Shown: positions 2,453-58,628, counted from the whole stretch's first letter. The stretch: DNA of 63,725 nt, filler included, from Candidatus Huberarchaeum crystalense (GCA_002790315.1; 5 parts of 5 records of this genome joined end to end with filler, not necessarily neighbours in it), one strand, 5' to 3'. Translations and numbers: made by a program. Notes: generated from the sequence alone by a model not told the origin.

Positions 2453-2683
2453 ATGGGAAATATCAGAATAAAGCAGATTAAAAAAACTGCGCGCGCACTT
2501 GTGGAAATAGCTGAGAATGAAATGTCTCCTGAATTTGAAAAAAATAAAGATGTTGCAAGCAAGTATTTTGAGTTTTCAAGCAAAAAACAGTGTAATTTAG
2601 TTGTTGGATATGCAACACATTTAAAAAACGCAAAGAAACGCAGAGAAGACAAAGAACTTGAAACCAGAGTTGTGATAAAATAG
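2453..2683 (+). CDS. rps17e: 30S ribosomal protein eS17
   Basis: MGNIRIKQIKKTARALVE...FEKNK...SKKQCNLVVGYAT. Confidence 0.93.
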   Translation: MGNIRIKQIKKTARALVEIAENEMSPEFEKNKDVASKYFEFSSKKQCNLVVGYATHLKNAKKRREDKELETRVVIK

Positions 2684-2780
2684 TGTGATTTGTGTATATA
2701 TAAAATTAAAAAATATGAATTTGCGCGCGTTAGACCTGTTGCAAAAACAAAATATAAATTATAGGCTCTAAAATAAGTTA

Positions 2781-4652
2781 TTACCCTACAAACTTTGGCC
2801 TTTTGCTTATCAACCTCGGCAAAGGCAGCGGCTTAAATGGCCTTTCTTTTGTTTCTTTCTTAATTTTTTTTATTAAATTTGCCACACTCATATTAAATAT
2901 TTTGCCATTGTCTGCGCGCGCCCTTATTTGTAAGGTGCTGTTTTCTCCATCTTCTTGCTCTTTATCACCAACAACAATCTGATACGGCACCCACTCTTGC
3001 TCTGCTTTCATTATTTTTTTCCCAAGTGTAGCATCAGTATCATCAATATCAACACGAATATTTTGCTTTTCAAGTTTATTAGCGAGATTCTCTGCAAATT
3101 TTAGGTGGTTTTCACTGCTAATAGGCAAAATGCGAATCTGAGTTGGTGAAAGCCAAAGTGGAAGAATAGAAATATTTCCTTTTTTTTGCTCTAAATGTGC
3201 TTTTTCAAGTAAAGCGTAAATATTTCTGTCAATTGCTCCAGAAATAGATGCATGAAGCATTATTGGATACTTTTTCTCTCCATCTTTATCTATATAGTTT
3301 ATATCAAATCTTTCGGTATTTTCAACATCTATCTGAACAGTTGAAAGAGCTGATGCTTTATCTGAAGCGTCAATAAAATTAAACTCAAATTTCATCACAA
3401 AGTAAAAAGGGCGCTCGTCCCACATCTCAATAAGTACTGGTTTTTTGATAGTACTAACAAGTTCTTTTGCAAAATCCTCGTTTTGATAATAAAAGTCTTT
3501 AACAAATCTTATTCCTACTTCATAAGGAAGTTCAATATCATTCATCCAATCCATCGATGCTTTGTATTGTAAATAAAACTCTTTTTTTGCTGCATTCATA
3601 TCAGCAACAAGCGTATGCATGTCAGGCATTGTAAATGCGCGCAATCTTTTCAAACCAACAAGTTCGCCTTTTTGCTCTTTTCTAAAAGAATAGTGTGTTA
3701 ATTCATATAATTTTATAGGTAATTGTTTGTATGAAAATACCATATCCTGACTTATTAAATATTGTCCAAAACAAGCAGAAAATCTTAAAAAAAGGTCTTT
3801 ATCTCCTGATTTTACAAGATAATGACGATTAGGGAATCTATTTAAATATTTGTGTAGTTGAGGGTGGGCGAGATCATACATTATTGGTGTTTCAACTTGC
3901 ATTCCCCCTAATTTAAACATTGTGTTGTTAATTTTTTCTTCTAAAAGTCGCTTGATAAGCGAACCCTTTGGATACCATCTCAAATTACCTACATCAGATC
4001 CTGATTCATAGTCAACTAATTCTAATGCGCGCATATATATAACATGGGCAGGAGTTTGAGCATATGTTCTGACTTTTTTGACCTCATAATCTACAAATTT
4101 TTTAAGATTTTCGTGACTAGTGAAATCAAATTCTTCAGCAGGTGTTAATTTTCCATCAACATTTAAAATATACCAATATGATTTTAATTTTTCCTCTGCT
4201 TTTAAAGCAAGGTTTTGCTCTTCCTTATTTTCTTTCTCAACTGTAATTTCTCTGCTAAGCTCAGAAAGAGGATGGCCTTTACATCTTAACTCAAACGCTT
4301 TATAATAACCAAAAGGCGCTTTTTTAACAGGAGCAATTTCTTTGATCTTTTCAACCAAAGCATTCAGAATTTTGTTGCTCGGATAAGCTGGAGCTAAATT
4401 TGAGGATAAATGCGCGTAAGGGTAAATTACAATTTCTTTGGCTTTAACTTGGTTATAAATTGATAATATCTCTTTTGTGGTGTTTTCAACAATCTTTATC
4501 TCATTGAATTCATCGCCTTTTTCAACAGATATAAAAACAACAAGCGCATCTTCTGCATTAAATGGTTGTGCGTCTTGGTCATAGCCAGATTCAAGTGCTT
4601 TTGCTTGTGGTTCAACCTTTATATAATCGCTGTGGATCGTTAGTATGTGCAT
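2781..4652 (-). CDS. thrS: threonyl-tRNA synthetase, archaeal type with N-terminal editing domain
   Basis: YPYAHLSS, APFGYYKAFELRCKGHPLSELSR, LRFSACFGQ, FRKEQKGEL, RAFTMPDMH. Confidence 0.97.
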   Translation of the reverse strand: MHILTIHSDYIKVEPQAKALESGYDQDAQPFNAEDALVVFISVEKGDEFNEIKIVENTTKEILSIYNQVKAKEIVIYPYAHLSSNLAPAYPSNKILNALVEKIKEIAPVKKAPFGYYKAFELRCKGHPLSELSREITVEKENKEEQNLALKAEEKLKSYWYILNVDGKLTPAEEFDFTSHENLKKFVDYEVKKVRTYAQTPAHVIYMRALELVDYESGSDVGNLRWYPKGSLIKRLLEEKINNTMFKLGGMQVETPIMYDLAHPQLHKYLNRFPNRHYLVKSGDKDLFLRFSACFGQYLISQDMVFSYKQLPIKLYELTHYSFRKEQKGELVGLKRLRAFTMPDMHTLVADMNAAKKEFYLQYKASMDWMNDIELPYEVGIRFVKDFYYQNEDFAKELVSTIKKPVLIEMWDERPFYFVMKFEFNFIDASDKASALSTVQIDVENTERFDINYIDKDGEKKYPIMLHASISGAIDRNIYALLEKAHLEQKKGNISILPLWLSPTQIRILPISSENHLKFAENLANKLEKQNIRVDIDDTDATLGKKIMKAEQEWVPYQIVVGDKEQEDGENSTLQIRARADNGKIFNMSVANLIKKIKKETKERPFKPLPLPRLISKRPKFVG

Positions 4653-35097: not shown

Positions 35098-35197
35098 NNN
35101 NNNNNNNNNNNNNNNNNNNNNNNNNNNNNNNNNNNNNNNNNTTAATTAATTAANNNNNNNNNNNNNNNNNNNNNNNNNNNNNNNNNNNNNNNNNNNN
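35098..35197. other. artificial scaffold linker
   Basis: N44-TTAATTAATTAA-N44. Confidence 0.97.
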
Positions 35198-35287
35198 CCC
35201 AGAAATAATAAAAAAAATAATGAAAAGCATATAATATAATATAATATAATATAATATAATATAATATATATTACTTAAAACAATAAA

Positions 35288-35614
35288 ATGGTTTTACCTG
35301 TATTTTTTATCCTCAATGGTGGTAGAGCAATCTCAATAGCAATAGGAGCAGGTACAGCACTTGCCCGCTTCGTCGCAAAAAATCCCAAAATAATTGGAAG
35401 CACTCTTTCAATTGAAGCAATATCCTCTGCAATCCAATCATATATTACCACCGAAAAAGAAAAAATTGACATAGTAAATGAAATAGGAAAAGACAACCCC
35501 CAGATCAGGGCTGATTTGTTCAAAAATGTATTTTCCCCTGATAATAATGTAATATCAAACATTATTCTTTATTTAGTCTTGCTCTTAATTATATATTATC
35601 TTTTGAAAAAATGA
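35288..35614 (+). CDS. element membrane protein
   Basis: Ala/Gly-rich N-terminus and C-terminal TM anchor IILYLVLLLIIYYLLKK. Confidence 0.7.
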   Translation: MVLPVFFILNGGRAISIAIGAGTALARFVAKNPKIIGSTLSIEAISSAIQSYITTEKEKIDIVNEIGKDNPQIRADLFKNVFSPDNNVISNIILYLVLLLIIYYLLKK

Positions 35615-35802
35615 AAATAGTTGTAAACAATCACTCGCCAAGCACAAAGACATCCGATTTGCTACTAATCCTTTTTAGTATCACATATTTTATTGCCGGG
35701 CTTTGTTTTGCCCAAGATTTGTTTGCCTGTGCAATATTTTTGGTCGCTGTCGTTTGCATTATCTTAATAAAATATTTAAAATTAAGTGAAAATGAAAAAT
35801 AA
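35611..35802 (+). CDS. element two-TM protein
   Basis: Two hydrophobic helices; overlaps both neighbours. Confidence 0.6.
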   Translation: MKIVVNNHSPSTKTSDLLLILFSITYFIAGLCFAQDLFACAIFLVAVVCIILIKYLKLSENEK

Positions 35803-35923
35803 TGATAAAGCAATAATTGCCGGGGCGGGTGCAGTATTAGCCTATTTATATTTGGAAAAGAAGAAAGAAAAAAAAACAGATATCTCCGATGTGTCTATAT
35901 CCCCCATGGAATTTTACGCCTAA
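35792..35923 (+). CDS. element 43-aa TM-anchored peptide (not in ORF track)
   Basis: MKNNDKAIIAGAGAVLAYLYLEKKKEKKTDISDVSISPMEFYA. Confidence 0.65.
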   Translation: MKNNDKAIIAGAGAVLAYLYLEKKKEKKTDISDVSISPMEFYA

Positions 35924-35998
35924 TAATTATTAATAACTTAATACTATAAATGTAATATATAATATGTAATATATAATATAAAAATAAAATAAAATAAA

Positions 35999-36358
35999 AT
36001 GCCAAAGTTTAGAATAAGCATAAGTGTTTGGAATAATTCGGGCGCGACTGTAACAGCACATGTGGGTGCTTCGCTTGTCGGTGTTACTGATTGGGCTGAA
36101 TACTACAATACGTCAGAGGACATCAAACGAGTATTTCCTCAGGGAAGAACCAACCTCGTTCGGTACCTCAGCACTGATTTGGGAAAGTATCAAAAATACA
36201 ACCTCGTTGTGGCTCTCTGGGAAGGTGAAAAAACCATAGGGACTGGTATCAAATATGCCACTGTAACACTGAAAAATGCTGTTGAAAAAAAAAAAAAAAA
36301 TAAAGTAAATATGACGATGTCAGTAACTGGTTTCATACCCTCTTCTTTTACGGTCTAA
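35999..36358 (+). CDS. element beta-rich Ig-like protein (candidate spike or fibre)
   Basis: FRISISVWNNSG...KYNLVVALW strand pattern resembles CARDB/Ig domains. Confidence 0.6.
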   Translation: MPKFRISISVWNNSGATVTAHVGASLVGVTDWAEYYNTSEDIKRVFPQGRTNLVRYLSTDLGKYQKYNLVVALWEGEKTIGTGIKYATVTLKNAVEKKKKNKVNMTMSVTGFIPSSFTV

Positions 36359-36388
36359 TAAAAAAAATAAAATAAAATATAACATAAA

Positions 36389-36898
36389 ATGGTATACAGA
36401 AAAGCAAAACAAAAGGTTCGAAGAGCACATTCACGCTCAAAAACTCTTTTTGGTGGCGACTTCCTCAAAAATCCTTATTTTGTTGGAATTGTGGCTGGTG
36501 CCGTCAAAAACGCATTAGCGGGAAAAAAAATAATTGATGTTGAGAACATCAAAAGTAGAATTTCAAAAATGGACGGCACAAATCCGCTGATTTTGTTAAG
36601 TGCAGGAATATTGGCGAAAAATCCGCTAATTACTGCAATCGGCTTGTTCGGAATTGTTGACCCACCTGATGATGCGGAAAAAAAGGAAGAATATATAGGA
36701 TATTCAAATGTCGGAGAAACGCAAGAAAATGCCGAATATTCAAATGTCGGAGAAACGCAAGAAAATGCCGAATATTCAAATGTCGGAGAAACGCAAGAAA
36801 ATGCCGAATATTCAAATGCCGGAGAAACGCAAGAAAATGCCGAATATTCAAACATCGGAGAAACGCAAGAAATAACAAAAAAAAGGTTTGCGTATTAA
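36389..36898 (+). CDS. element protein with basic N-terminal arm, hydrophobic core and acidic repeat tail
   Basis: MVYRKAKQKVRRAHSRSK arm; 12-aa EYSNVGETQENA repeats. Confidence 0.7.
   Translation: MVYRKAKQKVRRAHSRSKTLFGGDFLKNPYFVGIVAGAVKNALAGKKIIDVENIKSRISKMDGTNPLILLSAGILAKNPLITAIGLFGIVDPPDDAEKKEEYIGYSNVGETQENAEYSNVGETQENAEYSNVGETQENAEYSNAGETQENAEYSNIGETQEITKKRFAY
36701..36871. repeat. 36-bp coding tandem repeat, about 5 copies
   Basis: tattcaaatgtcggagaaacgcaagaaaatgccgaa repeated with few substitutions. Confidence 0.95.
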
Positions 36899-36958
36899 AA
36901 TAATTTAAAAAATAAATAAAAAAATATAAAAAATATAAATAAAATAAAATAAAATAAA

Positions 36959-37327
36959 ATGACAGCAACACCCTATAAAATATATGTTGTTTTTGAAAAC
37001 ACGGCGGTTGAAGGAGAATATATCCCTTTGTTGTATACGGCAAGTGATGTGGTCGGTGCAAATGCGGTACTCCCGTCTGACAGTGATATATATACTCTTC
37101 CGACAGGTACCAGCACGGGAGAACAAAAAGTATATCGGTTGCGTGAGGTAATCGTCATCGGCACATTCACGGACACAACATGTGCAAATATTTGGGCGAA
37201 TGATTTAAAGACTGAACATCTTATTATTCATGATATCAACACGAAGGACACGGTTGACCGTCAATTCAAAGTCATCAAGTTGTTTTTCAATGGAGGCACC
37301 TCAATCAGATTGAAGTTGGGGGCATAA
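36959..37327 (+). CDS. candidate single-jelly-roll major capsid protein
   Basis: 122 aa, beta-strand pattern throughout, follows a basic-arm protein, ends LFFNGGTSIRLKLGA; the fold is inferred. Confidence 0.5.
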   Translation: MTATPYKIYVVFENTAVEGEYIPLLYTASDVVGANAVLPSDSDIYTLPTGTSTGEQKVYRLREVIVIGTFTDTTCANIWANDLKTEHLIIHDINTKDTVDRQFKVIKLFFNGGTSIRLKLGA

Positions 37328-37334
37328 AAAAAAC

Positions 37335-37628
37335 ATGACCCAAAATATATGCACCCAATTGATATCGGCGGGGGATAAAAAGATAGTATTAGAACAACCA
37401 AGCGCTTTACAACGGATTTTTTTCTCCGTACGCGTCTTAGCCAGTACAACGGCGTGGTATGATGTCAGGATGTCATTCGATGAGCCCAAATTTTGTTCTT
37501 ATTATTCACTGAACGGGCCGAGGAAATATTTTGAGGCCGAGGGTGTTGACATATTTCAAGGGAATATTTGGATTTTTAATAGCACGGATACAGATTTGTT
37601 TCTGACTATGATGGAAATTTTGCATTAA
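37335..37628 (+). CDS. element beta-rich 97-aa protein (candidate minor capsid or vertex protein)
   Basis: RIFFSVRVL, YDVRMSFD, GNIWIFN, LFLTMMEIL strands; 7 bp downstream of the capsid candidate. Confidence 0.5.
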   Translation: MTQNICTQLISAGDKKIVLEQPSALQRIFFSVRVLASTTAWYDVRMSFDEPKFCSYYSLNGPRKYFEAEGVDIFQGNIWIFNSTDTDLFLTMMEILH

Positions 37629-37792
37629 ATATATTAAATACTTCGTCGACGAATACAAATATATTATTGGGGAAGTGTTTCTATGTTCGCTTCCCCCCCT
37701 ATCCTAAACATAGTAATATCAATATCCTAATAATATAACAATAATATAATAATAATATAATAATAATATATAATTTTTAAACATAGAAAAAG

Positions 37793-38917
37793 ATGGCAAA
37801 GATAGGGAGAAGATATTCTTGGTTTAACAACAAATATGCAGGGACATCTGAATATCCACCTACGCCTCGACAATATCAAGAATTATGTTCTATTGCGAAT
37901 GATAAGGATAACTACTCACATCCTAAAAATACGGTTTCTCCGATAAATATAATATCAAAAGGTTTTTTTCAATCCGAAGCACAAAAAGCCCTTCAAAACT
38001 CACAGATTGAAAAAGCGTTTGAAATCGCCGAGCAATACATCAAGACATCAAAAAGAAAATTTTATCGGTTTTTTGATAATGAGACAAAAAAAATCATAAT
38101 CTCAAAGCAACTCAACCGTTTTGACGAGGCATATGTTTTTTCTGCGAAGCGGAAACTCAAAGGGCTCCGAGAGATTGGACATGGGCATGATATCATGCAC
38201 ATCACCCTCACAATTTCTCACGCAGAAAACGCAGATTATGTCGAAAAATATCGGCAACTTAAGGATAAATTTAATGATTTTATGTGCTATTTGAAGCGAG
38301 TAATAAAAAAAAACATAGACTATATCTCGACATATGAAGTTACGCAAGCAAGCGACGGGCGATACCATCAGCACATCCACATCATCATCATTGGGGTTGG
38401 GTTTCTCCCGAAAAAAACAATATTACTGCTATCCGCAAAATGGAAAAAAATAACAAACTCCCGATATATCCACTTCAAATACATTTCAAAAAATCGAAAT
38501 GTCAACATTTTTTCCTACGCCATGAAGTATATAACAAAGGAATTTGCGAACATAAATCTCACAACAGTTCTTCTTTTTTCCTTGAGAGGAAAGGCATACA
38601 CGATGTCTCAGCGCCTTTCCCAACTCATATCAGAAAAAATAGTAGTGGTAGGTGAAAAAAAATATAAATATATTGACTCATTTGAAGCACAGGATATTTT
38701 CTGGGGTTACAACATTTCCGATTACGATCCGGCTTCTCTCACCTTTTTCTTTTCTTTTATTTCTGCGGAAGAAAAAATGAAACTTCTTTCCGAAGGCACC
38801 CAACAAGCGGAAGCCACGCAGAAAAAACAAGAAGACCGACGAAAAATGGATGAAAGAGATATCGAAGCGAACAAAAAAAACGCAATTAATATAAAAAATA
38901 TGATAAAAATAAAATAA
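37793..38917 (+). CDS. rep: rolling-circle replication initiator, HUH endonuclease with two catalytic tyrosines
   Basis: Motif I HITLT (~38198), motif II YHQHIHIII (~38366), motif III YAMKYITK (~38516), in the canonical order. Confidence 0.9.
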   Translation: MAKIGRRYSWFNNKYAGTSEYPPTPRQYQELCSIANDKDNYSHPKNTVSPINIISKGFFQSEAQKALQNSQIEKAFEIAEQYIKTSKRKFYRFFDNETKKIIISKQLNRFDEAYVFSAKRKLKGLREIGHGHDIMHITLTISHAENADYVEKYRQLKDKFNDFMCYLKRVIKKNIDYISTYEVTQASDGRYHQHIHIIIIGVGFLPKKTILLLSAKWKKITNSRYIHFKYISKNRNVNIFSYAMKYITKEFANINLTTVLLFSLRGKAYTMSQRLSQLISEKIVVVGEKKYKYIDSFEAQDIFWGYNISDYDPASLTFFFSFISAEEKMKLLSEGTQQAEATQKKQEDRRKMDERDIEANKKNAINIKNMIKIK

Positions 38918-38924
38918 AAACACA

Positions 38925-39308
38925 ATGAAAAACATAGGAGCGGGCGTGAGCGTAGTTCTCGCGCAGGAAAAAAAACAAGAAGAAGAAGGAGAAGTAAAGA
39001 AAGAAGAAGAAGAATATATTCCGATGAGAAATGAGATGATATTCTTCCTGCGGGAAGACCCAAGCATTCAAATATCCGCCGTAGGGGAATGGTGCGAAAA
39101 TGCCCGAGGCGATATAGTGAAGGAGGCAGACATATATTTCCTTCATATCCTGACGGGTCAAAGGTGCGAGAGTGCATGGTCGTGTCTGGTCGGCATGTCG
39201 GAACCTGATGAACACGCAACCGAAAAATGGGAAGCACTCTGCGAGCGTATCGAAGAACTTGAAAACCTCGAAGTGAATGTATGCGACGAGAAACAAGTCG
39301 GGCTATAA
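38925..39308 (+). CDS. element hypothetical acidic protein
   Basis: Directly follows rep on the same strand; E/K-rich N-terminus. Confidence 0.6.
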   Translation: MKNIGAGVSVVLAQEKKQEEEGEVKKEEEEYIPMRNEMIFFLREDPSIQISAVGEWCENARGDIVKEADIYFLHILTGQRCESAWSCLVGMSEPDEHATEKWEALCERIEELENLEVNVCDEKQVGL

Positions 39309-39343
39309 AAAACAAAAAACAAAAATAAAATAAAACAAACAAG

Positions 39344-39763
39344 ATGAAAAACCCAAAAGCAATTTTGGACACCTCCACTGTTGGAGTGTATGAACTAAAA
39401 AAATATATTTTGCGTCGCTCGATGAAAAAAATTGATGCTATTTTGCGGAAGACCCGCCGAATACGAAAAATGACAGCTGATTTCTACGAGCGAATTGATG
39501 ATGTGCCCCCGCTCGAAACGGACGAACAAGCAGAGCGACACGCAAAAAAAATCAATGATTTTCAGCGGGGAATAGGGAGAAGGTGGGGTGAAATATGGCT
39601 TGACAAAGAGGAAATTTACGCCACAATCGCCACGCTTTATGAGCTCGCGGATGTCCGGAAAAAATATCCTGACATCGTGGAGCCTGAAAGTATACCTTCC
39701 TGGGTGGATATTCGTCGGGAAATTGAATGCCGGATGAAAAAAACGATCTGTGCGAAAGAGTAG
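39344..39763 (+). CDS. element hypothetical helical protein
   Basis: 139-aa charged ORF, co-directional with rep. Confidence 0.6.
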   Translation: MKNPKAILDTSTVGVYELKKYILRRSMKKIDAILRKTRRIRKMTADFYERIDDVPPLETDEQAERHAKKINDFQRGIGRRWGEIWLDKEEIYATIATLYELADVRKKYPDIVEPESIPSWVDIRREIECRMKKTICAKE

Positions 39764-39995
39764 GCTTGCGAAAATGACATATAAATAGTATATGAGAGGG
39801 TGTGTCGCCGTATCATCCGCCCGATACGCCGACCCCCTCGTCATTCGCAATACTTTTACTTTTTTTTGGTTACTTTTTTTTGGAAAAAAAAGGAACATAA
39901 TAATAACAATATAATAATGATATAAAAGAATTATAATAATATTTATATAGTATCTTAATAGTATCTTATTAATAATTTGATAATAACTTAATAAA

Positions 39996-40071
39996 ATGTT
40001 TAATTTTCTAAAAAAAAACACCGTAGATGAGAAAGAAATCATCGAAATTAAAAAAAAAATTGCCTATATTG
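39996..40071 (+). CDS. element ORF start, truncated by scaffold end
   Basis: MFNFLKKNTVDEKEIIEIKKKIAYI runs into the linker. Confidence 0.5.
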
Positions 40072-40171
40072 NNNNNNNNNNNNNNNNNNNNNNNNNNNNN
40101 NNNNNNNNNNNNNNNTTAATTAATTAANNNNNNNNNNNNNNNNNNNNNNNNNNNNNNNNNNNNNNNNNNNN
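40072..40171. other. artificial scaffold linker
   Basis: N44-TTAATTAATTAA-N44. Confidence 0.97.
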
Positions 40172-56036: not shown

Positions 56037-58628
56037 ATGTCTCTAAATTCAATAAGCATCGAAAAACAAAAAATTTTAGATTGCCAAGAAAATACCCTTG
56101 TTATCGCAAATCCAGGAACAGGCAAAACATTTTTGCTTAGTCATAAATATATTTCTCTTTTGAAACAAGGACTAAAACCAGAAGACATACTTTGCTTGAC
56201 TTTTACAGAAAAGGCGCGCGAAGAAATGGAAAACCGAATAAAAAAATTCATTGACAAAGACAACATACCTGTTAGTATTTCTAATTTAAAGATTCATACT
56301 TTTCACTCTTTTTCTGCAGAAAATATTATAAAAAACAAATTTCTTGTAACTAATCTTGGACGTTATTTTGCATACAAATATTTGAAAGAAAAAGAAGTAT
56401 TTAATTATTCTGATGGCTATTTGATGAGCACAATAGCACCAACAATTGACAAAATGATTCAGTATCTTAAAAACCACAAAATCACTCCTGAAAAAATTGA
56501 TATTAAAAGAGCAGGAGATTTTTTGCAAGAAAAAGGAAGATATAAAAAAGAAGACCTTGAAAAGATTTTGTATTTTTTTGTTGAATTATATAAAGAATAT
56601 GAAAAAATAAAACAAGAAAAAGGCTATTTAGATTATGTAGATCTTTTGCTTAATTTTAAAATAGATTCTCCTTTATACAAATATGTTCTTGTTGATGAGC
56701 TTCAAGACGCAAATTTACTTGAAGCAGAAATTGCATTACACGCAGGGCAGAAATTTTTTGCTGTGGGTGATAAAAAGCAAGCTATCTTTGGTTTTCAAGG
56801 AGGTTCGGTAACAAATTTCAACAAGTTTAAACAATCAAAAGTGTTTGTTCTTTCTGAAAATTTTAGAAGCACAAACGAAATTCTTAACTATGCAAAAGAA
56901 TTTTATAAATTAAATGGAAATATGGTTCCCCAAGAGCTTGAAAATTTAAGAAATGTTGAGGGTAAAACAGGTCAAAAACCAAAGCTGTGTGTGTCGACGA
57001 ATCAAGTTAAAACAACTCTTTTGCTTGTGAAGCAAATATTAAATCAAAAGAAAGTTCCAACAATTTTAGCTAGAACAAACCAACAATTACTGCAAATAGC
57101 AAGCGAGCTCAAAAAGCAAAAATTAAATTATTTAATAACATTTTCAAGAGAGGCGAATTTTGCGAAAAAAGAAATACTTACCTTTCTTAGAAGTATATTT
57201 TCTGAGAATACGATTTGTCTTAAAAAGGCTTTGTTTACTCCTTTTATTTCTATTTCGACAAAAGATGCATTTGAGATATCAGAAAACAAAAAAATAATTA
57301 GTGATGAAATTTACAAAAAAGTGCCTGAACTTAAAAAAATAAAAGAGTCAATGCATTCTTTTAGTGATTTAATAAATTTGTTTGACAATTTAATTATTCC
57401 AAAAGCAAGGGAGCAAAGCAAGGAATATTTAAATATGGCTGAGAATTTTAAAGAAATGCTTAGCGAGGCAAAAAGAGCAGTAGATGCTTTCAATCCAAAT
57501 GAAATAATACTTTATCTGAGCACTGCTGATATTCCTCTTTCTGAAATAAAAGGAGAGCAGAACACAATTATTTTATCAACTGTTCACAAAGCAAAAGGCC
57601 GCGAATTTGATTATGTAATTTATTTGCCTGCGAAATCGCAAGAAAAACTTGCTTTTAGGTCTGCGATTATTGATGCAATACTCGCATCTCAAAACAATGA
57701 CAAATCAAATGTTGATGAAGAGCTAAACCTTGATTTTGTTGCAATTACAAGAGCAAAAAACGAATTATACATACTTAATCAAAATTATGGCCGCTATATA
57801 AATTCATTTATAGATAAGTCCTTTATCCCAGAGCAAGATACCTTTATTGAAAATAAAAACAATTTTGAGAAAAATTGGTTTGCTGAAAAGATAATAGAAC
57901 ATTTTTCAAACAAAAAATCATTTTCTTTTTCAGAAATTTATTTGAGCCCTGAAGATTATTTATATTTAAATATTTTGAAAATTGGTGAAATATCTTCTAG
58001 TCAAGAAATAGGCATTAATGTTCATTCAATTGCATCAAAAATACTAAAAGGTCTAACTCAAGAAGAGATATTCAAACAAGATTCTCAACTCGAAAAATAT
58101 GAAAAATATATATTTAATATTTATAAAATTATTTCTGAAATCAAACAAAAATATGCTTTAGTTTACAATTCCGAACTCTCAATAGATGTGCCATTATCAG
58201 AATTTTTTGAAACAGATGCTAAAATTAATTTTAATGGTAGAATTGATGCAGTTTTTAAAGATAATAATGAGAATTATTTAATTGTTGATTGGAAAACAGA
58301 TAGAAATGAAGTTCAAAGTTCTAAACATCGTCAGCAATTAGAATTATATATGCGCGCGCTTTCCAAGAAAAATAATATTCCTATTGAAAAAATAAAAATC
58401 GCCATTGCTTATGTTGGATTAAAAAAGCAAATATCTGATGGGGTTTTGGATTATAAACTTGATGAGCAACAACCATCAAAATATATATTTGAAAATATTG
58501 TGGTGAATAAAATAAATTTGTTTTTATATTGGAAAGAAAACCCCCAAAATTTTATCGCAAGTTTGTTTGAAAACGAGAGCAATGATCCGATTTTAATCAG
58601 AATTCTGCAAAATAGAGATAAACTATAG
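56037..58628 (+). CDS. UvrD/PcrA-like SF1 helicase with C-terminal PD-(D/E)XK nuclease
   Basis: ANPGTGKT, VDELQD, GDKKQAIFGFQG, NFRS, TVHKAKGREF, VAITRAK; GRIDAVF...IVDWKT...QLELY. Confidence 0.93.
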   Translation: MSLNSISIEKQKILDCQENTLVIANPGTGKTFLLSHKYISLLKQGLKPEDILCLTFTEKAREEMENRIKKFIDKDNIPVSISNLKIHTFHSFSAENIIKNKFLVTNLGRYFAYKYLKEKEVFNYSDGYLMSTIAPTIDKMIQYLKNHKITPEKIDIKRAGDFLQEKGRYKKEDLEKILYFFVELYKEYEKIKQEKGYLDYVDLLLNFKIDSPLYKYVLVDELQDANLLEAEIALHAGQKFFAVGDKKQAIFGFQGGSVTNFNKFKQSKVFVLSENFRSTNEILNYAKEFYKLNGNMVPQELENLRNVEGKTGQKPKLCVSTNQVKTTLLLVKQILNQKKVPTILARTNQQLLQIASELKKQKLNYLITFSREANFAKKEILTFLRSIFSENTICLKKALFTPFISISTKDAFEISENKKIISDEIYKKVPELKKIKESMHSFSDLINLFDNLIIPKAREQSKEYLNMAENFKEMLSEAKRAVDAFNPNEIILYLSTADIPLSEIKGEQNTIILSTVHKAKGREFDYVIYLPAKSQEKLAFRSAIIDAILASQNNDKSNVDEELNLDFVAITRAKNELYILNQNYGRYINSFIDKSFIPEQDTFIENKNNFEKNWFAEKIIEHFSNKKSFSFSEIYLSPEDYLYLNILKIGEISSSQEIGINVHSIASKILKGLTQEEIFKQDSQLEKYEKYIFNIYKIISEIKQKYALVYNSELSIDVPLSEFFETDAKINFNGRIDAVFKDNNENYLIVDWKTDRNEVQSSKHRQQLELYMRALSKKNNIPIEKIKIAIAYVGLKKQISDGVLDYKLDEQQPSKYIFENIVVNKINLFLYWKENPQNFIASLFENESNDPILIRILQNRDKL

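Follow-up and report, generated by a model that had tools for sequence, protein, structure and literature searches.

The realm Volvereviria was named for the pairing of a rolling-circle Rep of the HUH type with a jelly-roll capsid, and its members are described, in the portion of the source available, as infecting bacteria and eukaryotes (PMC13595969). According to the same portion, Pleolipoviridae and other pleomorphic archaeal viruses combine small circular genomes, which in some cases encode an HUH Rep, with membrane-based virions and lack a packaging ATPase; Pleolipoviridae/Pleomoviria are defined by a membrane fusion spike and membrane matrix proteins (PMC13595969). SPV1, of the Portogloboviridae, has an archaeal host, short ORFs and no packaging ATPase, and its shell consists of single-jelly-roll proteins, VP4 in hexamers and VP10 in pentamers, over a lipid layer; the excerpts concerned describe a double-stranded genome of 20 kb that has 45 ORFs and lacks an HUH Rep (PMC8459092, PMC8812541). 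Altivir, from subsurface water, includes genomes of 20.8 and 22.6 kb and was linked to its host, Ca. Altiarchaeum, via CRISPR spacers; the main text contains none of the terms 'rolling', 'ssDNA' and 'replication initiat' (PMC8324899).

The element analyzed here differs in size from Altivir and SPV1, being a circle of 5049 bp with 11 genes; the circular double-stranded genome of about 20 kb that characterizes the Portogloboviridae was not found. It lies in a window of 63,725 nucleotides, the whole stretch of DNA analyzed, from Candidatus Huberarchaeum crystalense (GCA_002790315.1), in which scaffolds are chained by joints of N44, TTAATTAATTAA and N44. Two such joints flank positions 35198-40071 (4874 bp), and the plus strand of this separate scaffold holds 10 complete ORFs and one run-off ORF, so that the joints and the ORF map bear out a first-pass annotation that had described a stand-alone 4.9-kb scaffold with all credible genes on the plus strand. 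Two metagenome contigs, L001 and L002, include the scaffold (identity 100% and 99.8%, respectively), and in both its end is bridged to its start by 175 bp, of which 174 bases are identical between the two. The scaffold ends connect as a circle or head-to-tail array, the scaffold covering 4874 of the 5049 bp, and in longer contigs the gene order recurs with a period of about 4.9-5.9 kb. The features are as follows.

35199..35234, plus strand: 3' end of orfA (last 11 codons and stop, ...PEIIKKIMKSI, matching the end of a 95-aa ORF in L001 and L002)
35288..35614, plus strand: orf1, 108 aa, N-terminal hydrophobic segment and C-terminal membrane anchor
35611..35802, plus strand: orf2, 63 aa, two transmembrane-like helices, dN/dS 0.14
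35786..35923, plus strand: orf3, 45 aa, short hydrophobic core between charged ends, dN/dS 0.20
35999..36358, plus strand: orf4, 119 aa, judged by eye to be beta-rich, dN/dS 0.24
36389..36898, plus strand: orf5, 169 aa, basic N-terminal arm, Gly/Ala-rich hydrophobic segments, acidic repeat and basic C-terminus
36959..37327, plus strand: orf6, 122 aa, modeled as a single jelly-roll (AF2 pLDDT 81, pTM 0.76)
37335..37628, plus strand: orf7, 97 aa, modeled as a minimal eight-strand jelly-roll (AF2 pLDDT 95)
37670..37695, plus strand: stem-loop, with an 8-bp stem pairing 37670-37677 with 37688-37695 and the loop TTTCTATGTT at 37678-37687
37793..38917, plus strand: Rep, 374 aa, HUH endonuclease without helicase domain (from Pfam, motifs and alignments)
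38198-38212, plus strand: Rep motif I, HITLT, aa 136-140
38366-38380, plus strand: Rep motif II, HQHIH, aa 192-196
38516-38530, plus strand: Rep motif III, YAMKY, aa 242-246
38925..39308, plus strand: orf9, 127 aa, acidic N-terminal stretch and conserved C-terminal domain retaining two Cys
39344..39763, plus strand: orf10, 139 aa, basic, accessory, present in only a subset of the family
39856..39903, no strand assigned: non-coding block with inverted repeat GTTAC-T8 ... A8-GGAAC, seen as invariant columns in the alignment
39996..40071, plus strand: 5' part of orfA, running off the scaffold end and continued through the 175 bp in L001 and L002

The ORF that had been noted to run off at 40071 is thus orfA, completed across the gap as a charged protein of 95 aa (dN/dS 0.11), helical or coiled-coil as judged by eye from its sequence. 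The suggestion that a packaging ATPase could lie in the missing part did not hold, since the gap is 175 bp and completes this ORF, and no Walker A motif occurs in any plus-strand frame of the whole circle. Searches of Pfam, PHROGs and NCBIfam gave no match to a housekeeping gene or integrase, in agreement with the earlier reading, and none to mobilisation, partition or toxin-antitoxin families. The GCGCGC signature is likewise absent as claimed: no copy occurs in the element, and the remainder of the window has 78, against an expected 0.9-2.4. Across family members, dN/dS values of 0.11-0.31 indicate purifying selection on each of the 11 ORFs. A distant relative, L082, is circular at 3922 bp, with an exact 91-bp terminal repeat and a Rep 38% identical, and it retains a core of Rep, orf1 (E 1.8e-19), orf5 (E 2.1e-29), orf6 (E 1.6e-29), orf7 and orfA (E 1.5e-16).

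As an HUH protein the Rep is nuclease-only, and it carries two tyrosines (YxxKY). The three motifs named in the first-pass annotation were all located and agree with the definitions applied (uuTu for motif I, HuH for motif II, and YxxKY with the catalytic Tyr for motif III), and H136, T138, T140, H192, H194, H196, Y242, K245 and Y246 are invariant among 13 Rep sequences down to 38% identity. In these motifs, and in passing the curated cut-off of Pfam PF23343 (REP_ORF2-G2P; 35.2 bits against 27.8), it resembles the Rep_1/PF23343 initiators known from small plasmids and from filamentous phages; it differs from them in falling below the curated cut-off of Rep_1 (PF01446, pUB110/pC194 plasmids; 28.1 bits against 33.2) and in giving no tblastn match to plasmid and phage records. 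Among 10 remote relatives scanned, PF23343 was detected at E<=0.01 in nine, six of them above cut-off, and Rep_1 in the tenth. A profile search among 1.84 billion representative proteins yielded 118 matches at E<=0.001, and all ten that were looked up are unnamed proteins.

About 100 nt upstream of rep lies the stem-loop, with 98.1% of cells paired, both sides changed in 4 of 8 pairs, a score reached by none of 500 shuffles, and a loop, TTTCTATGTT, that is near-invariant in 27 sequences. This covariation marks the stem-loop as a candidate double-strand origin with the putative nick site, and the inverted-repeat block at 39856..39903 may be a single-strand origin or a terminator. Our results support a self-contained replicon of the rolling-circle type.

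Alternatively, Ca. Altiarchaeum may carry such a replicon as a cryptic rolling-circle plasmid that makes no particles and whose membrane and jelly-roll proteins act at the cell surface or in host interaction; this is the main rival explanation, and we regard it as possible though doubtful. It is favored by a Rep of the Rep_1/PF23343 kind, common on small plasmids, and by the lack of an ATPase and of a capsid hallmark at the sequence level, but seven to eight non-replication genes fill a genome of 3.9-5 kb and are retained over deep divergence, none of them matches a plasmid function, and neither the DNA nor the Rep protein has a match in PLSDB.

At least two of the small proteins are membrane proteins. 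The first-pass annotation had counted three, which held for orf1 (hydrophobic segments with Kyte-Doolittle values of 1.78 and 2.59; dN/dS 0.20) and orf2, with two segments each, but not for orf3, whose hydrophobic stretch of 15 residues falls short of the threshold used, and orf5 has one weak segment. The basic-arm protein it had listed is orf5, whose acidic 12-aa tandem repeat (DNA 36700-36872) varies from 3 to 5 copies across relatives. No counterpart of orf2 was detected in L082. orf4, which contains a homopolymer A run at 36285-36304, gave no match in Pfam and PDB sequence searches. Two genes are accessory: orf9 forms paralogues, with 1-3 copies per genome, and is absent from L082, whereas orf10 was found in 16 of 80 loci, with a weak relative in L081.

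The hydrophobic core of orf3, with its charged ends, together with genes on a single strand, a genome of 4-5 kb and the derivation of the name PF23343 from plectrovirus ORF2 and inovirus G2P, would fit a filamentous inovirus- or plectrovirus-like virus in which the tiny hydrophobic proteins are coat proteins. The major coat protein of Tubulavirales is small and helical with one membrane helix; orf3, at 45 aa, has a hydrophobic core of 15 residues, below the threshold used. The defining hallmark of filamentous phages, a Zot/pI-type morphogenesis ATPase, is absent, with no Walker A on the coding strand and no match in Pfam or PHROGs, and the element has two conserved jelly-roll proteins, for which we know of no counterpart in these phages. 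We consider a filamentous virus very improbable. With pleomorphic archaeal viruses the element shares a probable archaeal host, a small circular genome, an HUH Rep, perhaps a membrane-based virion, and the lack of a packaging ATPase; no ORF is long enough for a fusion spike and no family was matched, and one of orf1, orf2 and orf5 might be a divergent matrix protein.

The predicted structures speak for a virus. The annotation had listed three small beta-rich proteins, and AF2 models with fold comparison support orf6 and orf7 as single jelly-rolls, orf4 being beta-rich by eye. The orf6 model lies closest to the capsid chain of SPV1, an archaeal virus with an internal membrane (entry 6oj0, 178 residues; rmsd 3.2, 102 of 122 residues aligned, 8% sequence identity), at Z 6.8-7.1, a value of about 7 being in the range that the fold-comparison tool labels possibly 'only a common arrangement'; the runner-up reached Z 4.9. 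Foldseek with the same model found nothing significant in PDB and BFVD. orf6 is a candidate major capsid protein. The matches of orf7 are generic, at Z 8-9 to GOLD (ranked first), PM2 P1, PLRV coat, an SH1 chain, Ena and cupins, and its model reaches Z>=5 with 289 chains. orf7 is the most variable gene (median identity 48%, dN/dS 0.31) and may encode a vertex protein or one that binds a receptor. At 97 and 122 aa, orf7 and orf6 are very small for capsid proteins.

Jelly-roll folds are frequent among cellular proteins, and a fold so generic suits a plasmid too; against this, a virus capsid protein is the top structural match of the orf6 model, well ahead of the rest. With Volvereviria the element shares a small circular genome with an HUH Rep and, in the models, two jelly-roll folds, here with a putative capsid role. 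It differs in that no phage record was found to resemble it in sequence; the capsid proteins of that realm are far larger than orf6 and orf7, and we know of no member that encodes a group of small membrane proteins and of none from Altiarchaeota. The F-type jelly-roll capsid protein of Microviridae has several hundred aa, and the largest ORF besides Rep has 169 aa, too short for such a protein. A double jelly-roll of the Finnlakeviridae type was not found either: in the models orf6 and orf7 form one jelly-roll each, and no other ORF fits two.

A satellite or vesicle-borne element, replicating autonomously and leaving the cell in the particles of a helper virus or in host particles or vesicles, would explain the very small genome, the absence of a packaging enzyme and the several membrane proteins, and other viruses are known from Altiarchaeum in the part of the literature at hand (PMC8324899). 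We hold it to be improbable: the element has two jelly-roll proteins of its own, shares no gene with any phage record searched, and no helper was identified.

The element belongs to a large and diverse family of 411 metagenome loci, which is undescribed and without a name. No match to it was found in the phage collection, PLSDB plasmids or IMG/VR. The phage collection, which may or may not include Altivir, gave no match to the element by DNA or protein, and the empty result in IMG/VR also suits a plasmid. Clustering at 90% identity gave about 695 clusters each for Rep, orf6 and orf4, and synonymous divergence within the family is 0.5-1.4. Twenty DNA runs from groundwater or aquifers contain 0.79-0.84 of the sampled words of the element, and four metatranscriptome runs contain 0.28-0.38.

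The host is probably Ca. Altiarchaeum, not the organism of the bin. That the element belongs to another organism had been proposed earlier, and two lines of evidence agree. In a CRISPR array of an Altiarchaeum MAG (G001:C192), 7 of 20 spacers match family loci with <=5 mismatches, the best being identical over 42/42, compared with 0 of 410 shuffled spacers in the same test. Spacer sp11 matches the non-coding block at 39859-39891, with 4 mismatches to the scaffold and <=5 in 16 loci, and sp07 and sp14 match orf1 in relatives. The repeat of this array also occurs on 18-44 kb contigs of two further genomes of the Altiarchaeum phylum, of whose spacers 0 of 55 and 0 of 8 match the family. Tetranucleotide usage is closer to Altiarchaeales (r 0.70 and 0.64) than to the bin (0.35). 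Among genomes of 185,579 species there were two matches, both small contigs in Altiarchaeales MAGs, and a Rep relative was present in only 2 of the 61 genomes from the Altiarchaeum phylum. The inferred host, the route by which it was assigned and the subsurface water are shared with Altivir. Since CRISPR arrays are directed against plasmids too, the spacers are also compatible with the plasmid explanation.

Judged from sequence and models, a virus that forms virions is somewhat the likelier identity of the element when set against a bare plasmid. The earlier proposal of a virion-forming element is upheld in its self-contained replicon, its two modeled jelly-rolls and its genes kept in L082, and not in the ATPase placed in the gap. 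In the cycle we envisage, Rep would nick the plus strand within the hairpin loop and remain attached by a tyrosine. One strand would then be unrolled by a helicase and a polymerase of the host, Rep would reclose it as a single-stranded circle, and the complementary strand would be primed from the second conserved inverted repeat. The particles may be icosahedral with an internal membrane, their shell built of orf6, perhaps with orf7 at the vertices or as the host-binding part, while orf1, orf2, orf3 and orf5 would lie in the lipid layer, where orf5 would hold the DNA with its basic arm. A packaging ATPase would be dispensable; SPV1 and FLiP likewise lack one, according to the available part of the source (PMC8812541).

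Two jelly-roll proteins accompanied by small membrane proteins, a large undescribed family and the CRISPR memory of Altiarchaeum therefore point to this element as probably representing a novel type of small archaeal virus.

The element is a single scaffold of the window, flanked by joints of the form N44, TTAATTAATTAA, N44, and it stands alone with every gene on the + strand, as the first-pass annotation had described it. Eleven ORFs were recognized, named orfA, orf1 to orf7, Rep, orf9 and orf10, ten of them complete and one running off the scaffold end. The G+C content of the scaffold is 35%, against 31% elsewhere in the window; the other scaffolds carry archaeal-type ThrRS, AlaRS, GatE and GyrA, and the bin is therefore an archaeon.

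Features of the window treated in the text
35198-40071, all 11 ORFs on the + strand: the element, 4874 bp
36285-36304, within orf4: homopolymer of about 16 A
36700-36872, within orf5: 36-bp tandem repeat
37670-37695, about 100 nt upstream of rep: hairpin
37793-38917, + strand: rep gene
56037-58628: UvrD/PcrA-like helicase gene of the bin

The scaffold is present at 100% identity in a metagenome locus, L001, in which its last 573 bp occur again, 92.8% identical, 175 bp ahead of the scaffold start. A second locus, L002, contains it at 99.8% identity in circularly permuted form with the same 175-bp link, and the link copies of the two loci agree at 174 of 175 bases. These links make the unit 5049 bp long, either a circle or a head-to-tail array, and in longer contigs the gene order recurs with a period of about 4.9 to 5.9 kb. 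The assembled sequences practically demonstrate that the element closes at 5049 bp. The ORF that runs off at 40071 encodes a 95-aa protein whose end lies at position 35234. It had been suggested that a packaging ATPase could lie in the missing part; this did not hold, since the 175-bp link completes the 95-aa ORF and the + strand frames of the whole 5049-bp unit contain no Walker A motif.

The gene order orfA-orf1-orf2-orf3-orf4-orf5-orf6-orf7-Rep-orf9, followed by orf9 copies or orf10, is constant across all loci of at least 4.9 kb. The dN/dS values of all 11 ORFs are between 0.11 and 0.31, at synonymous distances of 0.5-1.4, and all are therefore real genes. Rep passes the Pfam model PF23343, does not pass Rep_1, and lacks a helicase domain; the HUH motifs HITLT, HQHIH and YAMKY that had been read from it are all present, with invariant key residues. 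In bacteria, nuclease-only rolling-circle Reps use a host helicase of the UvrD/PcrA type. The bin encodes a UvrD/PcrA-like helicase of its own, whose best NCBIfam match (E 5.8e-39) is far below the equivalog cut-offs.

The hairpin upstream of rep has a stem of 8 bp in which 98.1% of cells are paired across 27 distinct sequences, with both sides changing in four of the eight pairs, and its score was matched by none of 500 shuffles and by no slid version. The loop is nearly invariant (TT[T/G]CT[A/G]TGTT; TTTCTATGTT in the element). The hairpin resembles a rolling-circle origin, of which we infer the nick site itself. That the element is a rolling-circle replicon is established or very nearly so. 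Upstream of the hairpin, the palindrome TTCGTCGACGAA is paired in 79% of cells with no compensatory change and is not claimed as a structure; a conserved box, AATACTTCGTTGACGAAAACAAATATAT, also upstream of it, is duplicated in two related loci (L018:2706-2903 and L061:1089-1259) and resembles an iteron or Rep-binding site. A second conserved block, a T8/A8 inverted repeat, lies upstream of orfA. Judged by eye, every gene has in front of it an AT-rich box, centred about 25 nt from the ATG, and an A-rich leader that lacks a Shine-Dalgarno motif; leaders of this kind are also seen in the genes of the bin.

For the ORFs other than Rep, searches of Pfam, PHROGs and NCBIfam gave only sub-threshold noise, and profile searches of PDB sequences with Rep, orf9, orf10 and orf4 gave nothing below E 0.1. 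Three small transmembrane proteins had been proposed, of which orf1 and orf2, with two hydrophobic segments each, bear this out, and orf3 has only a short hydrophobic core. The expected basic-arm protein corresponds to orf5, which in addition to this arm has hydrophobic stretches rich in Gly and Ala and an acidic 12-aa repeat in three to five copies. The 36-bp tandem repeat of orf5 (4.8 copies, 97% matches) encodes EYSNVGETQENA; relatives have 3-5 copies, and the related locus L003 appears to have more than the window. The A homopolymer of orf4 encodes an invariant EKKKK and could be a site of slippage or assembly error; the longest A run is 12-17 in 16 of 17 distinct homologues and 88 in the seventeenth, the latter probably an assembly artefact. 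Members of the orf9 family, present in 1-3 copies per genome (L081:2-352 and 2539-3133; L040, L047, L023), consist of a long acidic or EKK-type low-complexity stretch and then a conserved YFxHIxTGxRCES...W domain in which two Cys are kept.

Three small beta-rich proteins had been noted, and orf6 and orf7 model as jelly-rolls. The model of orf6, the candidate major capsid protein, has a pLDDT of 81. In an all-against-all structural search, its first match was a capsid chain of Sulfolobus polyhedral virus 1 (SPV1; Z 6.8, rmsd 3.2, 102 residues; Z 7.1 on a second look), separated from the next match at 4.9, and further down the ranking came more jelly-rolls, among them P23-77 VP17, the STIV and PR772 vertex proteins, and XepA. 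With orf6 as query, Foldseek gave no match at E<=0.001 in PDB or BFVD. The orf7 model is a minimal eight-strand jelly-roll (pLDDT 95) with generic matches: a GOLD domain (Z 9.1), the PM2 spike P1 (8.7), the potato leafroll virus coat (8.7), an SH1 chain (8.3), Ena and cupins, with 289 chains at Z>=5. By hhalign, orf6 showed no profile similarity to orf7 or orf4, and prediction of an orf6-orf7 complex gave no answer (score 0.00). In the ESM Atlas, orf4 and orf7 found only their own unnamed clusters; weak leads there, SlaA-like (0.89) and XepA or Enas (0.77-0.78), were not used as evidence.

We lean slightly towards the element being a virus that forms virions, because two jelly-roll proteins, membrane proteins and a protein with a basic arm make up a compact set conserved over deep divergence, and because it shows no plasmid function and its orf6 has a separated match to SPV1. 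A plain plasmid, which the plasmid-type Rep and the generic matches of orf7 would favour, is the main rival but rather less likely. According to the ICTV profile and a PNAS paper, the lipid layer of SPV1 is covered by an outer shell made of two single-jelly-roll proteins, and the virus lacks a packaging ATPase. A satellite or vesicle-borne element, which might also carry membrane proteins, is improbable next to the two jelly-rolls. In the literature consulted, pleolipoviruses and predicted archaeal filamentous viruses are named among the archaeal single-stranded or rolling-circle kinds; a filamentous virus, which would share the rolling-circle Rep, is a very improbable reading of a gene set with two jelly-roll proteins.

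The conserved core of this putative virus was delimited with a distant relative. A second genome scan, of the genomes of 185,579 species, yielded two relatives, both small contigs in Altiarchaeales MAGs. One of them, L082, has an exact 91-bp terminal repeat and is therefore a complete circle of 3922 bp. Profile matches on L082 were obtained for Rep (E 2e-78), orf1 (2e-19), orf5 (2e-29), orf6 (2e-29), orfA (1.5e-16) and orf7 (8e-5). Its orf7 homologue follows rep on the - strand (2953-3270), so that coding on one strand is not universal in the wider family. A 119-aa ORF occupies the orf4 position without detection by the orf4 profile, and orf2, orf9 and orf10 are absent. By this gene content, the genes for jelly-roll and membrane proteins form the core, with orf9 and orf10 as accessory genes.

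The Rep alignment led to 411 related loci on metagenome contigs, 80 of which were kept as the sampled family loci. Separate searches with Rep, orf6 and orf4 turned up about 695 protein clusters apiece at 90% identity. Every one of these unnamed clusters comes from a JGI or ENA metagenome, and the contigs do not exceed 7.9 kb. No relatives were found in IMG/VR scans with Rep alone or the Rep alignment, in phage and plasmid collections (tblastn with Rep and orf6; blastn with the whole scaffold), or in a first genome scan with a single Rep as query. Against 1.84 billion representative proteins, the Rep profile had 118 matches at E<=0.001, of which 16 reached E<=1e-30. Ten of these matches were scanned: nine had PF23343 at E<=0.01, six of them above the cut-off, and the tenth had Rep_1; all ten checked by cluster were unnamed. 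Of the scaffold's sampled words, 0.79-0.84 were present in 20 groundwater or aquifer DNA runs and 0.28-0.38 in four metatranscriptome runs, and the element is likely transcribed. A description of the family was not found in the literature searched; in the main text of the Altivir paper (PMC8324899), whose supplementary tables might list such small contigs, the terms 'rolling', 'ssDNA' and 'replication initiat' are absent. Two candidates were ruled out as matches: Charybdis elements, which reportedly have no Rep, and Rep-Arvir, which has a distinct non-HUH fold.

Several lines of evidence bear on the host. The hexamer GCGCGC, the host signature reported as missing from the element, has no copy there and 78 elsewhere in the window (expected elsewhere: 0.9 by base composition to 2.4 by a first-order Markov model), and samples of two Altiarchaeales genomes have none. 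In the 58 kb outside 35098-40171, at 31% G+C, the copies are scattered within genes, with differing surroundings; GCGC and CGCG there are also 4-10 times commoner than in the samples of Altiarchaeales. The tetranucleotide usage of the element correlates with the two Altiarchaeales genomes at r 0.70 and 0.64, and with the bin at 0.35. The window GyrA is 41-42% identical to those of Altiarchaeales (70% in the first 130 aa), and the bin is therefore not Altiarchaeum. In two Altiarchaeales MAGs, the GyrA open frames (G001:C254 and G002:C92; loci L083 and L084) are about 1320 aa long, compared with 826 aa in the window, and match in two parts, the pattern expected of an intein-bearing gyrA.

A DNA search of 61 genomes of the Altiarchaeum phylum gave five short matches on one contig of the MAG Candidatus Altarchaeum sp. 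CG2_30_32_3053; at the start of this contig lies a CRISPR array with 20 complete repeats of 29 nt and one that is cut. Seven of the 20 spacers match one of the 80 sampled family loci over their full length with at most five mismatches, one of them at 42 of 42 bases, as was true for none of 410 shuffled spacers. Against the window's own element, two spacers have 4 and 5 mismatches and a third shares 28 exact bases. The protospacers lie on both strands, in orf1, orf1/orf2, orf5, Rep and the T8/A8 block. Two further genomes of the phylum have the array repeat, or a variant differing by one base, on 18-44 kb contigs, so the array type belongs to these archaea; the spacers of these two genomes (G004 and G003) gave 0 of 55 and 0 of 8 matches to the family. 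A Rep relative is present in two of the 61 genomes. Spacer-like matches between the element or its family and the rest of the window were only chance 15-19-mers. That Ca. Altiarchaeum has met the element is as good as shown, and the spacers and tetranucleotide usage agree with the early proposal that it belongs to another organism than the bin. The case shows that binning can assign small circles to the wrong organism.

Few archaeal viruses are known to have single-stranded or rolling-circle genomes, and none is known for Altiarchaeota. Tentatively, the element may be the first seen member of a new group, of high rank, of single-stranded DNA viruses of archaea that infects Ca. Altiarchaeum, a dominant carbon fixer of subsurface aquifers. 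Its rolling-circle genome would be 4-6 kb long, and its shell would consist of a 122-aa SPV1-like single-jelly-roll protein, enclosing a lipid layer that tiny membrane proteins hold. It would link rolling-circle plasmids to the single-jelly-roll viruses that contain a membrane, Portogloboviridae and relatives, and have the smallest capsid protein among them.

PMC8324899 describes Altiarchaeum as a carbon fixer that is highly abundant in the deep subsurface. The present element, small and very diverse, takes up a third of one Altiarchaeum CRISPR array and is probably a main partner in Altiarchaeum ecology. Should orf6 be an SPV1-type capsid protein, the family would combine a Rep of plasmid type with a membrane-bearing shell of single jelly-rolls, a combination that would bear directly on the origin of viruses from plasmids by jelly-roll capture (the theme of PMC8812541).
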